Below the pieces are notes generated by a model that saw nothing but the letters and a program-made list of their open reading frames with translations, searched no databases and was not told where the DNA came from. Below are positions 17,325-24,560 of a DNA stretch of 24,813 nucleotides, in pieces. Both the position numbers and the translations under genes were made by a program. The stretch is from Patescibacteria group bacterium (GTDB taxonomy: Bacteria > Patescibacteriota > Minisyncoccia > UBA6257 > 02-FULL-45-10c), in NCBI GenBank assembly GCA_038078395.1, contig JBBUBH010000030.1:1-24813 (forward strand), given 5' to 3'. Position 1 is the stretch's first letter, and every line of letters begins with the position of its first letter.

Positions 17325-17328
17325 TATG

Positions 17329-17465
17329 CCAGGAAGTGAAAACTCGACTGGTTTCGCAAGGCGAAACAAAGTCGAAATACAGAACACTGCCTTGGATAAT
17401 AAATAATGTTTAATAAAAGTCGTAAAGTTAATAGAATAATAATTAGTCGAGTTTCTACTTCCTGG
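17329..17465 (+). mobile_element. MITE-like element, copy 2 (137 bp), at the secF start codon
   Basis: 21-bp imperfect TIRs ccaggaagtgaaaactcgact/agtcgagtttctacttcctgg, flanked by a TATG direct repeat (17325-17328, 17466-17469). Confidence 0.75.
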
Positions 17466-17466
17466 T

Positions 17467-18357
17467 ATGTTTGATCTGATAAAATATAAATATTTATTCA
17501 TCGGTTTTTCCGTTTTATTGACGGCGCTGGCGATTATAAGCATGATTGTTTTCGGTTTTAAGGCCGGTGTTGATCTGAAGGGCGGGACATTGTGGCAGAT
17601 AAAATTGCAGAATCAAATAGCGGCGGCCGATTTGGAAACGTATTTAAGAAGCCTTCCGGATTTGGAGGATGCCGGCGTTGCAAAAGATTCTTCCGGGCAG
17701 ATATTTTTAATCCGGGCAAAAGAAATTTCCGAAGCAGATCATCAGAAATATTTGTCGGCGCTTGGAGAAAAATTCGGCAATATTGAAGAAATGCGTTTTG
17801 AAAGCATTGGACCGGCTATCGGCAAAGAGCTTCGCGATAACGCGCTGATTGCTTTTGTGGCGGTGCTTTTTGGAATTTCATTATATATTGCTTTTGCTTT
17901 CCGCAAGGTTTCATATCCGGTCAGTTCCTGGAAATACGGTTTTGCGACCCTTATCAGCCTTTTTCACGATGCTTTGATTCCTGCCGGAGTTCTGGCTCTT
18001 CTTGGATGGTGGCGCGGAGTTGAGCTGGACACTAATTTTATTGTGGCTATTCTGGTGATTATGGGATTTTCAGTGCATGATACGATTGTGGTTTTTGACC
18101 GCATCAGGGAAAATTTATCTTTATCAAAAGATAAAAATAATCTTGGAAAAATAATTAATGACAGCGTCAATCAGACCTTTGCGCGGTCGGTTAATACTTC
18201 ATTGACTTTGGTTATCGTTCTTACGGTTCTTTATTTTTTGGGCGCAAGTTCATTGGCTTATTTCACGCTGATTATTTTATTGGGGACTATTATCGGGACA
18301 TATTCTTCAATTTTTGTTGCCAGCCCGCTTTTGACTTTTATGCAGCCGAATAAGTAA
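17467..18357 (+). CDS. secF: Protein translocase subunit SecF
   Basis: GVDLKGG, SIGP.IGKEL, SL.HD, GFSVHDTIVVFDRIRE, QTFARS.NTS, GTYSSIFVA. Confidence 0.97.
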   Translation: MFDLIKYKYLFIGFSVLLTALAIISMIVFGFKAGVDLKGGTLWQIKLQNQIAAADLETYLRSLPDLEDAGVAKDSSGQIFLIRAKEISEADHQKYLSALGEKFGNIEEMRFESIGPAIGKELRDNALIAFVAVLFGISLYIAFAFRKVSYPVSSWKYGFATLISLFHDALIPAGVLALLGWWRGVELDTNFIVAILVIMGFSVHDTIVVFDRIRENLSLSKDKNNLGKIINDSVNQTFARSVNTSLTLVIVLTVLYFLGASSLAYFTLIILLGTIIGTYSSIFVASPLLTFMQPNK

Positions 18358-18497
18358 TATTCCCTATCTTTTTTACTGGCACCAGCGTCCGCTTGCTCCT
18401 GCGACAAGCGTCGCTTACGCCTCCCCAGCCGGACTCGCTTTCAGCGAGACCAAGCTCCGGCTGGGTCCGTAGTTGCCATACAAAAAGATAGTGAATA
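18358..18497. repeat. Structured repeat element, copy A (core 18378-18477)
   Basis: Core ggcacc-[hairpin]-tacgcctccccagccggactcgctttcagcgagaccaagctccggctgggtccgtagttgcc inside the outer stem ctatcttttt/aaaaagatag; starts at the secF stop. Confidence 0.9.
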
Positions 18498-18518
18498 AGT
18501 GAAGTTTAGAATGCGGGA

Positions 18519-18547
18519 TTGACTCCATTTTGTTTATATGGTATTTT
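18519..18547 (+). promoter_or_regulatory. Sigma70 promoter for the 18656 gene cluster
   Basis: TTGACT-17-TATTTT with TGn extension. Confidence 0.5.
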
Positions 18548-18655
18548 AGAAATAACTTAATAGTCGATATATATCATATTAAAGAAGCGCGGAGTCAGTT
18601 CAATAAGTAAGTGCAACACTTCTAGTAAAATAGGAGTGTATGAAATATAAACATA

Positions 18656-19723
18656 ATGAATTTTAATAACATGGGCAATAAAAACGTTAATATTTCAAAA
18701 ATAGTCGGTAATTTGCTTGCCCCCCTTGATGCCAGACAGAAAGAGGTGATAGAGGGCCGTTACGGCTTAAAAGATAGCGCCGTGAGCACTCTTGCTGAAA
18801 TCGGGGACAAGTATGGGGTTACAAGAGAACGCATCCGCCAGATTGAGGCAGGGGCTCTTTTGACCGTAAAAAATATTTTTAATAAGAGCGAGGCGGGGGA
18901 TTTTGTGAATTTAGTAAAAGAGCATCTTAATAATGTTGGGGGGCTGAGGAGAGAGTTGCTTCTTTTGGCTGATTTACGGCTTATGGTTGCTGATGCAAGC
19001 GTTCCATATTTGGATAATAAAGTCCGTTTTATTTTAGATATTGCAGGTGAACCGAAATTAGTTCTTGAAGATGATGGTATTTATTCATATTGGTTTTTAA
19101 ATGAAGATAGCCGCAAGAAAGCGGTTAATTTGATTACAAAGCTTGCAAAGTCGATGGAGGGCAGTCGGGATAATATTGTCAGCCATCAGAACGTGGATTC
19201 ACTTTTTAATGAAAATGTTAATCCGCATAATCTGAAGGATTTGGTTGCAATCAATTACATTTCTATTTCTAAGAAATTTCATGTCAATGAATACGGGGAT
19301 TTCGGGCTTTCACATTGGCCGGAAGTGAATCCGCGCACTGTCCGCGATTGGTCTTATATTGTTCTGAAAAAGAACCAGAAGCCGCTGCATTTTTCCGAGA
19401 TAGCGGAATCAATCAATAAGCAGAGAAAAAATTTCAAACGGCTTGCGCATCCGCAGACAGTTCATAATGAGCTTATTAAAGACGACCGTTTTGTTCTTGT
19501 CGGACGCGGAACATACGGGCTTCGCGAATTCGGAATAATGCCCGGAACCGCGAGAGAAGTTATCGGCAGATTACTGAAAGATCACGGACCCTTGAAACCG
19601 AAAGATCTTTTGGAATTGGTGCTTAAAGAAAGGATGTTTAAAAAGAATACTATCTTCATCAATTTGCAGAATAGAAAGCATTTCAAACGGATGGAAGACG
19701 GCCGTTATACGACTTTGGTATAA
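18656..19723 (+). CDS. Sigma70 region-4 HTH plus HARE-HTH (RNAP delta-like) DNA-binding protein
   Basis: N-terminal RQKEVIEGRYGL...TLAEIG..YGVTRERIRQIE; C-terminal L.K..KPLHFSEIAE.I...HPQTVHNELI.D.RFVLVGRGTYGL. No sigma region 2 recognised. Confidence 0.8.
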   Translation: MNFNNMGNKNVNISKIVGNLLAPLDARQKEVIEGRYGLKDSAVSTLAEIGDKYGVTRERIRQIEAGALLTVKNIFNKSEAGDFVNLVKEHLNNVGGLRRELLLLADLRLMVADASVPYLDNKVRFILDIAGEPKLVLEDDGIYSYWFLNEDSRKKAVNLITKLAKSMEGSRDNIVSHQNVDSLFNENVNPHNLKDLVAINYISISKKFHVNEYGDFGLSHWPEVNPRTVRDWSYIVLKKNQKPLHFSEIAESINKQRKNFKRLAHPQTVHNELIKDDRFVLVGRGTYGLREFGIMPGTAREVIGRLLKDHGPLKPKDLLELVLKERMFKKNTIFINLQNRKHFKRMEDGRYTTLV

Positions 19724-23018: not shown

Positions 23019-23029
23019 GAGCGATAGTT

Positions 23030-23605
23030 CTATTGTTTTGATTTTTCCAATCTTTCCGCGTATTGGCCGGTTTCTGTGTTTATGCGAATTAAATCTCCGT
23101 TATTTACAAAAAGCGGAACCGCAACTTGAGCGCCTGTTTCAAGGATTGCCGTTTTGCTCCCGCCTTGCGCCGTGTTTCCGCGTTCTCCGGGCGGCGTTTC
23201 TTTGACTAATAAATCGGCTTTAATCGGCGGTTTAACGTTCAGAATCTTGTCATCAAGCTTTAATGCCATAACTTCGCTGTTTGGTTTCAGGAATCTGGCT
23301 CCGGCGCCGATTTTGCTTTCTTCCAGCTTAAAGCGGTTTTTTGGATTGCCTTTTTCACAGAACCAGAATTCTCCGCGGTTTGAATAAAGGAAGGTTATGT
23401 TTTCTTTTTCCACGTCAATTTCTGATATCGCTTCGTTCTGATGGAAATTGCGTTCAATAACTTGTCCAGTAAGGAGGTTTTTGATCCTTGTTTTCGCAAC
23501 CGGTTTCCTTTGCTGCATCCTTAAAAATTCGTAATCCAGAACTTCGTATGGAGTTCCTTCAAATTCAAACATCGTGCCGATTTTTAGTTCGTTATAATTT
23601 AACAT
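23030..23605 (-). CDS. efp: Translation elongation factor P
   Basis: Typical three-domain EF-P with TPPGERGNTAQGGSK.A.LETG....VPLFV..GD.IRINT.TG.Y.ER. Confidence 0.96.
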   Translation of the reverse strand: MLNYNELKIGTMFEFEGTPYEVLDYEFLRMQQRKPVAKTRIKNLLTGQVIERNFHQNEAISEIDVEKENITFLYSNRGEFWFCEKGNPKNRFKLEESKIGAGARFLKPNSEVMALKLDDKILNVKPPIKADLLVKETPPGERGNTAQGGSKTAILETGAQVAVPLFVNNGDLIRINTETGQYAERLEKSKQ

Positions 23606-23611
23606 AGGGTT

Positions 23612-23640
23612 AGTTTATGGCTTTTAGCTTACAGAGTCAA
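23612..23640 (-). promoter_or_regulatory. Leaderless-type efp promoter
   Basis: Minus strand TTGACT-17-TAAACT-6nt-ATG. Confidence 0.7.
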
Positions 23641-23690
23641 TGTATCTGTTACTTTTATATCCTAAAATTTAGTTGTAATATGTAAACATG

Positions 23691-23827
23691 CCCCGTAGTG
23701 AAAATTCAGTGGTTGCTAACGCAAAAAAGTTTCACTATTGGACATAATTAAATAAGTAATTAATATATAAATAATTAATTTAAGCTCACGCAACGCAATT
23801 TTGCGTAGCTGAATTTCTACTACGGGG
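23691..23827 (+). mobile_element. MITE-like element, copy 3 (137 bp), at the start codon of the NTP-transferase gene
   Basis: 19-bp imperfect TIRs ccccgtagtgaaaattcag/ctgaatttctactacgggg, flanked by CATG/TATG (3 of 4 match). Confidence 0.7.
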
Positions 23828-23828
23828 T

Positions 23829-24560
23829 ATGAATAAAGTTAAAAAAGCCATTATATTGGCCGGCGGAGGAGGAACCCGCCTTTATCCGGTAACTTTGGAA
23901 ACTCCAAAACCGCTTTTAACGGTAAATAAAAAGCCGATCATCAATTATCTGATAGATATGTTTAAGAAGCATGGCGTGGAGGAAGTGGCGATTGTGGTCA
24001 GGAAAAGCCATTTTGATGATTTTTCTTGGTGGCTCAGAAGGTGGCAGAACGATCTCGGCGGAGTTTGGGTTAATTTGATGGTGGAAGGGGAGCCGATGGG
24101 AACATTGGGATATTGGGCGCATAATTTGCACACCTGGACGGGAAATGATCCATTTTTTCTGACAAACGGCGATGAGCTGAAAGATGTTGATTTATCCGCT
24201 ATGACGGAATATCATCGCAAAACTGGCGCATTGGCGACGATTGCCGCGGTGGAAGTTGCTAATCCGAAAGAATATGGCGTGATTGTTTTTGATGGCGATT
24301 ATATTGATAAATTTTTGGAAAAGCCGGAAAATCCTCCGTCTAATTTCATTTCTTCAGGGCTTTATCTTCTTGACCCCAAAATAAAAGATTTTATTAAAGA
24401 AGAAATTAGCCAGAATAAGAAATTTTTAATGATAGAAAAGGACCTTTTTCCGAAACTGGCGGGAACTAATAATTTATCAGCTTATAAATCAACAGGCAGG
24501 TGGTTTGATTGTGGAAATTTGGAACGTTGGGAAAAGGCAATTAAAGAGTGGGGTAGTTAG
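23829..24560 (+). CDS. Sugar-phosphate nucleotidyltransferase (NTP_transferase; GDP-mannose pyrophosphorylase-like)
   Basis: AIILAGGGGTRL.P.T...PKPLL, EPMGTLG, NGD, YGV, FLEKP, GLY, W.D.G. Confidence 0.92.
   Translation: MNKVKKAIILAGGGGTRLYPVTLETPKPLLTVNKKPIINYLIDMFKKHGVEEVAIVVRKSHFDDFSWWLRRWQNDLGGVWVNLMVEGEPMGTLGYWAHNLHTWTGNDPFFLTNGDELKDVDLSAMTEYHRKTGALATIAAVEVANPKEYGVIVFDGDYIDKFLEKPENPPSNFISSGLYLLDPKIKDFIKEEISQNKKFLMIEKDLFPKLAGTNNLSAYKSTGRWFDCGNLERWEKAIKEWGS

Follow-up and report, generated by a model that had tools for sequence, protein, structure and literature searches.

The stretch of DNA analysed here, called the window below, covers positions 1 to 24,813 (24,813 nucleotides, nt) of contig JBBUBH010000030.1 and belongs to a 626-kb metagenome-assembled genome (MAG) of a groundwater member of the Patescibacteria (Paceibacterota-like, 87% coding), hereafter the source genome. 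Two of its genes, secF and a nucleotidyl-transferase (NTP-transferase) gene, are each preceded by a 137-nt inverted repeat lying between two ATG triplets, the second of which is the start codon. A preliminary description had presented these repeats as MITEs (miniature inverted-repeat transposable elements) placed at start codons, each opening a small upstream open reading frame (uORF). The layout of the two loci is as follows.

16071-17324, plus strand: secD open reading frame (ORF), with its stop TAA (17322-17324) 1 nt ahead of the upstream ATG
17325-17328, plus strand: left target-duplication copy TATG at secF; the upstream ATG (17326-17328) occupies the ancestral secF start position
17329-17465, plus strand: gene-less MITE-type copy at secF, 137 nt, with 21-nt arms at 17329-17349 and 17445-17465
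17326-17406, plus strand: uORF1 of the secF copy, 26 codons and a stop, beginning at the upstream ATG
17406-17474, plus strand: second small ORF of the secF copy, 22 codons, which overlaps the uORF1 stop (TAATG), crosses the right arm and stops 3 nt beyond the ATG of secF
17410-17437, plus strand: promoter-like site TTAATA-16-TAGAAT in the interior of the secF copy, facing secF, 29 nt before its ATG
17466-17469, plus strand: right target-duplication copy TATG, holding the secF start codon (17467-17469)
17467-18357, plus strand: secF ORF, 296 amino acids (aa), with the N-terminus MFDLIKYK conserved among relatives
23676-23681, plus strand: -10 box TAATAT of the NTP-transferase gene, 6 nt before the upstream ATG, a leaderless-type promoter
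23687-23690, plus strand: left target-duplication copy CATG at the NTP-transferase gene (3/4 match), with the upstream ATG at 23688-23690
23691-23827, plus strand: gene-less copy at the NTP-transferase gene, 137 nt, with 19-nt arms at 23691-23709 and 23809-23827 and the same conserved mismatch as the secF copy
23688-23747, plus strand: uORF of the NTP-transferase copy, 19 codons and a stop, beginning at the upstream ATG
23739-23766, plus strand: weak promoter-like site TGGACA-16-TAATAT in the NTP-transferase copy, facing the host gene
23828-23831, plus strand: right target-duplication copy TATG, holding the start codon (23829-23831)
23829-24560, plus strand: NTP-transferase ORF, 243 aa

The geometry previously reported for both sites, namely 141 nt from ATG to ATG, the positions of the secD stop and of the TAATAT box, and the stems, was confirmed in the sequence. 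Since the flanks are 4-bp direct repeats (TATG/TATG at secF and CATG/TATG at the NTP-transferase gene), the ATG doublet represents a target-site duplication. In the window, the arm motif pair is found twice, for 0.01 expected after shuffling, and the arms of the secF copy contain a conserved tandem G.T/A.C mismatch (GTGAA opposite TCTAC). As RNA, the two long window copies are predicted to fold at -53.5 kcal/mol (z -6.1 against shuffles) and -51.2 kcal/mol (z -4.6), with a stem extendable through UAUG/UAUG so that both AUGs would be paired. A comparison of the window copies with Rfam 15 returned no family match, the chance long-hairpin matches falling far under the gathering score. The uORFs of the secF and NTP-transferase copies encode the peptides MPGSENSTGFARRNKVEIQNTALDNK and MPRSENSVVANAKKFHYWT, which share the beginning MP(G/R/L)SE(N/T)S because the arm is simply read in frame. 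The copies nearest to the NTP-transferase one within the genome are 85-87% identical to it. Other inverted-repeat elements, previously set apart as another family, start directly past the secF stop (18358-18497) and the NTP-transferase stop (24557-24702), so that each of the two genes has repeats at either end of its reading frame.

Comparison with related genomes establishes that the repeats are insertions. Indeed, secF starts right after the secD stop, element-free, in 27 relatives (MFDLIKYK; for example TAAT-ATG), and the NTP-transferase orthologues of 8 relatives are also element-free, 7 of them with a -10 box located some 7-13 nt ahead of the ATG. Cutting out the element together with one duplication copy recreates the arrangement of the relatives in the source genome, and the earlier proposal that precise removal restores the native start is borne out at both genes by these empty sites. 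One contig of the source metagenome joins position 17327 to 17466 without the element; this joint is imprecise, with two odd letters, and the contigs are noisy. Furthermore, complementary arms are found in 75 copies from the source genome and its relatives. With their arms, 4-bp duplications and empty sites in relatives, these are copies of a mobile inverted-repeat element, and both window repeats are non-autonomous MITE-type insertions displaying every structural hallmark of MITEs.

A structural scan of the whole 626-kb genome gave a census of about 29 copies with complementary arms, distributed into two classes of 64-81 nt and 132-146 nt plus one copy of 325 nt. The 4-bp duplication matches at 4/4 positions in 18 of the 21 long copies, and at all positions in 34 of the 40 long copies collected from seven genomes of relatives. 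Its main form in long copies is (T/A/C)ATG, coinciding with a start codon: in the source genome, an ATG falls within the duplication of 17 of the 21 long copies, and each of these 17 heads an ORF of 100 aa or more whose native N-terminus can be recognised. These start-seated copies lie in both orientations, 13 forward and 4 reverse (duplication CATA, the gene starting on the other strand), and their hosts include rpsL, fusA, adk, secF, a lysS-like gene and the sugar nucleotidyl-transferase gene. Among the relatives, 33 of the 40 long copies have an ATG in the duplication and 28-30 are at real starts, the hosts being rpsL again, rplN, rplI, rpmB, clpP, ftsA and mnmA. Essential host genes keep an intact frame because the ATG is duplicated, one copy staying behind the promoter or upstream stop and the other being joined to the ORF. 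This genome-wide count of the start-codon share, which the preliminary description had proposed, reveals a family strongly tied to NATG starts, in the relatives as well. Two other features singled out there turn out to be incidental: the 141-nt distance is not a constraint, with long copies of 132-146 nt, and the leader peptide is in frame by coincidence, as the ATG-to-ATG distance is divisible by three in only 9 of 18 cases and all uORFs terminate within the element.

To appreciate this bias, one has to consider that 29% of the free non-coding TATG sites of the source genome are start codons, a share that rises to 51% when the upstream 14 nt are AT-rich. The probability of finding at least 14 of 15 copies at starts is 4e-7 under the former background and 7e-4 under the latter; these values are generous, kin genomes and subfamily expansions not being independent samples, and the effect is nonetheless large and repeated. 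No flank motif was found beyond T-ATG in AT-rich DNA. In addition, starts of the leaderless type, preceded at 5-9 nt by a -10 box, account for 28 of 47 element sites versus 129 of 471 in the comparison (60% vs 27%, p 2e-5). In the source genome at large, -10 boxes peak 6-8 nt upstream of the ATG (72 of 478 genes), Shine-Dalgarno (SD) cores are present in 52 of 478 genes, and a T stands ahead of 54% of ATG starts; leaderless-type starts are widely used in this genome and SD sequences little.

The coding content of the gene-less copies is limited to short uORFs, and their interior is heterogeneous and AT-rich, with no conserved core. A single copy of the source genome, the 325-nt one, has a gene between its arms.

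C41:5900-6224 (contig C41 of the source genome): coding copy, 325 nt, with a 102-codon GIY-YIG ORF (Pfam E 5.6e-17)

The parent element is about 310-325 bp long, with arms of about 21 bp like those of the gene-less copies and one gene for a single-domain GIY-YIG nuclease of about 90 residues. Of 151 genomes of the order, 117 contain homologues of this nuclease, frequently several of them. For the five closest ones, from other genomes (60-69% identity), the flanking arms are the same and the elements measure 310-324 bp; distant ones (45-54% identity) lie within other families of inverted-repeat arms, their elements measuring 280-330 bp and showing NATG or ATGN as duplication. The GIY-YIG nuclease is the sole gene found between the arms, and fills the whole interior, in at least 16 elements that come from different genomes and belong to four arm families; no transposase gene adjoins any of the copies examined. 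The gene-less copies derive from this GIY-YIG-only parent, which has the same ends. At its locus (C41:5885-6260), the coding copy of the source genome follows the fourth codon of a pseC/DegT-like aminotransferase gene (ATG ATA CCT TAT|G); an ATG at C41:6177, inside the copy, runs in frame through the right arm into this gene, and a start there would swap the first three residues of the protein for a 16-residue extension.

The host ORF starts at the ATG abutting the arm in 11 of 18 coding elements, with hosts including dnaX, parA, tgt and a murF-like gene, and each of these 11 has the nuclease gene upstream, pointing the same way as the host gene. The gaps between nuclease stop and host ATG are -4, -4, -4, 8, 8, 15, 19, 20, 20 and 20 nt; in one arm family the nuclease stop and the host start overlap as ATGA, a classic coupled arrangement. 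The nuclease gene may face either arm; its direction is fixed with respect to the host gene and not with respect to the asymmetry of the arms.

The nuclease ORFs are 83-105 aa long with GIY-YIG as their only Pfam domain, and an alignment of 26 homologues exhibits invariant catalytic-type Tyr, Gly, Arg, His, Glu and Lys positions. An AlphaFold2 model (predicted local distance difference test, pLDDT, 93.5) has as nearest solved folds UPF0213 (1zg2) and the Slx1 nuclease domain, I-TevI being a weak match. Single-domain GIY-YIG nucleases that bind hairpin repeats (NTS/SRM) flanking their own gene have been described under the name Ssn (Chenal et al. 2025, Nat Commun, PMC11893778); these enzymes cut single-stranded DNA (ssDNA) only, guided by the hairpin, upstream of it and on one strand only (PMC11893778). 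The source genome also holds a cassette of this type.

C48:3949-4304 (contig C48 of the source genome): canonical NTS-ssn-NTS cassette, in which two inverted hairpins enclose a single-domain GIY-YIG gene for 94 aa (3985-4266)

Both hairpins match the Neisseria NTS/SRM consensus and are the only two such hairpins in the source genome; the arms of the start-codon elements (CC....AGTGAA / TTCTACT....GG) are unlike this consensus. The C48 protein and the nucleases of the start-codon elements share 34% identity with an hhalign probability of 98.4, yet the repeats and habits differ, and the two groups therefore appear, from protein sequence comparison, to be related clades.

The arms themselves hint at what the nuclease may recognise. 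Across the 75 copies, 8 stem positions display 2-3 types of Watson-Crick pair with almost no mispairs. At the same time, a GA/AG swap between the arms produces a tandem G.T + A.C mismatch in the hairpin of either strand; it is found in 63 of 64 copies when the search leaves the swap free, recurs in two other arm families and is preserved in coding copies, where the loop reaches about 280 nt. Because the stem covaries freely while this non-canonical feature stays invariant, recognition of a folded single strand is suggested, and this would be the form bound by the nuclease, as with the Ssn nucleases.

We thus propose, with good confidence, an explanation that combines start-seated MITE-type copies, a GIY-YIG parent, the borrowing of host signals and the recognition of a folded strand. 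The coding form would carry no expression signals of its own and would be placed between the start signals of the host and the host ORF. The nuclease is likely expressed from host signals because its gene would be promoterless, is co-directional and ends -4 to +20 nt from the host ATG; ribosomes would then probably be returned to the host gene by termination-reinitiation. The start seat may hence be a way to borrow the expression signals of the host gene, and the gene-less copies would keep it because they share their ends with the coding form. Beyond the start-codon observation itself, what is added here is this parent element and its GIY-YIG nuclease, which offer a reason for the seat.

For the gene-less copies, another route has to be considered, which is absent from the preliminary description: an internal, outward-facing -10-like box is present in about half of them. 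Such a box lies just inside the gene-proximal arm in 24 of 46 copies vs 6 of 46 at the other end, and strict boxes facing the host gene 20-36 nt before the ATG number 21 vs 2 at the other end. At the window copies, a transcript from this internal promoter might lack the left arm and the hairpin altogether; alternatively, ribosomes translating the uORF might melt the stem. We lean towards one or both of these two routes for the window copies, hold reinitiation after the uORF to be a less likely answer and RNA processing an improbable one, and see very little room for any other route. The secF copy links secD to secF through an unbroken series of coupled stops and starts, and a relay secD, uORF1, uORF2, secF may be envisaged there. 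As a feature of the family, a relay of small ORFs was rejected, being present in 11 of 46 copies vs 11.9 by chance. The uORFs of start-codon copies span 10-36 codons.

A bolder version of this proposal can be formulated, to which we give some credit while inclining to doubt it. According to it, an Ssn-like ssDNA nuclease would be the mobility enzyme of the smallest self-contained class of transposons known (about 300 bp), which would actively seek start-site DNA such as melted leaderless promoters. The hairpin would be overcome by a programmed hand-over of ribosomes, through stop/start coupling in coding copies and through uORF unmasking or an internal promoter in gene-less ones, and insertion into essential genes would be neutral by design.

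The same arms are also found away from start codons. The third copy of the window belongs to the short class (64-81 nt) and is intergenic, upstream of a tRNA gene and off any start codon.

14897-14968, minus strand: third copy, short (72 nt), sharing the arms of the long copies; CTTG as duplication at 14893-14896 and 14969-14972

In short copies, the arms enclose a small GC-rich inner hairpin, and the duplications are TTTG, CAAG or AAAA, beside terminator-like hairpins or T-runs and not at start codons. Besides the window copy (14897-14968), such sites occur at C13:6357-6431 and C100:108-183 and on contigs C17, C77 and C78. They represent either a second target class or the mark of a different selective filter. 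A search for orthologous insertions, as a view on evolution in situ, yielded one pair only, shared by two species (L021:453-584 in genome G016 and L027:454-584 in genome G013), with a CAAG duplication in the loop of a terminator-like hairpin. Over the 73 nt of the arms and the adjoining first nested hairpin, this pair has 0 substitutions, and its 61-nt interior has about 22 differences (about a third). The arm family is patchy, being present in 32 of 60 relatives, and few decayed copies exist. Since a phylum-wide scan with this arm motif remains near the control level outside the order, this arm family seems to be local, with other arm families serving elsewhere.

Several points weigh against the explanation proposed above. 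The sole coding copy of the source genome sits 9 nt inside the pseC-like gene, off its start. In gene-less copies, the uORF stop is 14-130 nt from the host ATG across the family, and 60 and 81 nt from it in the window copies, so that tight coupling cannot be the rule for the latter; furthermore, the internal promoter-like sites of both window copies do not rise above shuffles. Use of the downstream ATG is deduced from the intactness and essentiality of the genes alone. The best copy-to-copy identities within the source genome are 72-91%, and as no pair exceeds 91%, there is no sign of very recent movement there. Transposition events, excision products and enzyme activity were not observed. We know of no hydrolytic GIY-YIG nuclease devoid of a DNA-binding domain that makes 4-bp duplications or joins strands. 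Finally, the start seat could stem from selection against other insertions.

This last point amounts to an explanation without any targeting, in which any T-ATG-like word of AT-rich DNA can receive an insertion and, in a compact genome (87% coding) with short, promoter-dense spacers, purifying selection eliminates all copies but those that regenerate a start. It is consistent with the flanks, which contain no motif beyond T-ATG in AT-rich DNA, and with the AT-rich background, where one in two free non-coding TATG sites is a start already; short copies with the same arms do use other words (TTTG, CAAG, AAAA) beside terminator-like hairpins, and the scarcity of decayed copies fits strong deletion and selection. 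However, 14 of 15 copies at starts still has a probability of 7e-4 under that same AT-rich background, with a pattern that the relatives repeat. Selection alone also accounts poorly for the use of both registers holding a whole ATG (NATG and ATGN) by different arm families, for the enrichment of leaderless-type starts (60% vs 27%, p 2e-5) and for the co-direction of nuclease and host genes in 11 of 11 coding copies. We consider this explanation unlikely, while taking it as a serious one. Adoption by the host, with the repeats acting as cis-regulatory RNA hairpins (translational gate, thermosensor or RNase III site) conserved at the host level, strikes us as improbable. The very stable predicted hairpins that pair both AUGs, the few decayed copies and the orthologous insertion, with its conserved arms and diverged interior, are what such regulators would look like, and processing of MITE hairpins by RNase III in mRNAs is established for the Neisseria Correia elements. 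Yet the host genes have no common function (ribosomal proteins, secF, adk, sugar nucleotidyl-transferase and others), the copies occur in both orientations (13 forward, 4 reverse) and patchily among relatives in which the same genes are element-free, no Rfam match was obtained, and the invariant mismatch is kept in coding copies with a loop of about 280 nt.

The identical ATG at both ends and the strong hairpin right after the first one might recall an element excised intron-like from RNA, or ribosomes hopping from AUG to AUG as in T4 gene 60 or mitochondrial byp. Against this, no ribozyme or intron family matches, the 137 nt contain a heterogeneous AT-rich interior without a conserved core, and no stop directly follows the take-off codon, the uORFs running for 10-36 codons; moreover, the ATG pair is the target duplication, other copies have non-ATG duplications, and empty sites at the DNA level explain the geometry, which makes excision or hopping hardly credible. 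Just as improbable in our eyes are REP/REPIN- or PATE-type hairpins moved by an HUH tyrosine transposase (RAYT or the TnpA of IS200/IS605), with the GIY-YIG gene as a passenger. Hairpin repeats with a conserved structure and a variable stem sequence, a GTAG-like tetranucleotide and one protein gene flanked by repeats all recall such systems; the duplications, on the other hand, are clean, 4 bp long and of varied sequence, when IS200/IS605-type elements are not known to make any target duplication, and only the GIY-YIG nuclease lies between the arms (at least 16 elements, four arm families), with no transposase adjoining the copies examined. The readings as IS200/IS605, REP/RAYT, homing endonuclease, intron or bypass were each rejected because each fails a defining feature.

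If the proposal of a start-seated, GIY-YIG-based element holds, it would describe a mobile element built around a GIY-YIG hydrolase; to our knowledge, no prokaryotic insertion-sequence family uses one. Insertion that regenerates the ATG would let a parasite sit in the expression path of essential genes (rpsL, fusA, adk and secF among them), and this in genomes that count among the most streamlined known, and the recently described Ssn single-strand nucleases would be linked to an actively selfish life style. The elements also bear on translation start in bacteria of the candidate phyla radiation (CPR), which are poor in SD sequences and rich in leaderless starts, because dozens of genes per genome must be read behind a very stable 5' hairpin. 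In practice, gene callers and operon predictions will misplace starts at element loci in Patescibacteria, and the pairs of nuclease and hairpin are candidate programmable ssDNA tools.

Known systems share some of these traits each. The preliminary description had raised the possibility of an undescribed selfish-element system: that it is a selfish mobile element agrees with our data, and as to its being undescribed, the literature searched contained neither a GIY-YIG element with terminal repeats and duplications nor a bacterial element nesting on start codons. Like the copies described here, bacterial MITEs (Neisseria Correia, ERIC and RUP elements, Rickettsia palindromic elements) are short, gene-less and multicopy, with inverted repeats and target duplications, and they are co-transcribed with their neighbours, can form mRNA hairpins and can carry promoters (PMC10969869). 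The parents of the reviewed MITEs are insertion sequences with DDE transposases, or none is known (PMC10969869); this review reports no MITE on start codons and contains neither "start codon" nor "GIY". Genes are not destroyed by the insertion of Rickettsia palindromic elements either, but these elements are read through in frame as protein, whereas here the uORF stops and the gene restarts.

Small nuclease genes flanked by hairpin repeats that multiply in gene-less form are also known from REPIN/RAYT and from IS200/IS605 with PATE, together with recognition of folded ssDNA in which imperfections of the stem mark the strand. These systems differ by their HUH tyrosine enzyme, its covalent intermediate, the lack of target duplication and their insertion beside a fixed tetra- or pentanucleotide. 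Free-standing GIY-YIG homing endonucleases (of the T4 Seg or I-TevI type) are likewise selfish genes that lie squeezed between those of the host and are expressed along with them, but they possess a DNA-binding domain, address one cognate site, spread by allele recombination and lack terminal repeats and duplications as well as gene-less derivatives. Integron cassettes with their attC sites resemble the present elements in being promoterless and dependent on upstream host signals, and in a folded-strand site where pairing is kept and unpaired bases mark the strand; unlike them, they are inserted by a tyrosine recombinase into one attI site, not at many start codons, and without duplication. 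In the suggested recognition of a folded strand, the arms of the start-codon elements match Ssn/NTS, integron attC sites and IS200/IS605 ends alike.

The closest published system is Ssn/SRM, represented by SsnA of Neisseria meningitidis (cd10448). Its authors noted that the architecture resembles an insertion sequence and presented Ssn as a modulator of transformation that has been domesticated, rather than as an active transposon (PMC11893778); target duplications, start-codon nesting, co-orientation with host genes or stop/start coupling, and Patescibacteria are not mentioned in that paper. In both systems, a single-domain GIY-YIG gene of about 90 residues is bracketed by hairpin repeats that also occur gene-less in many copies. 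In Ssn, however, each repeat is its own palindrome of about 30 nt with a conserved consensus, whereas in the start-codon elements, which have no match to the SRM consensus, the two ends pair with each other and their sequence varies freely.

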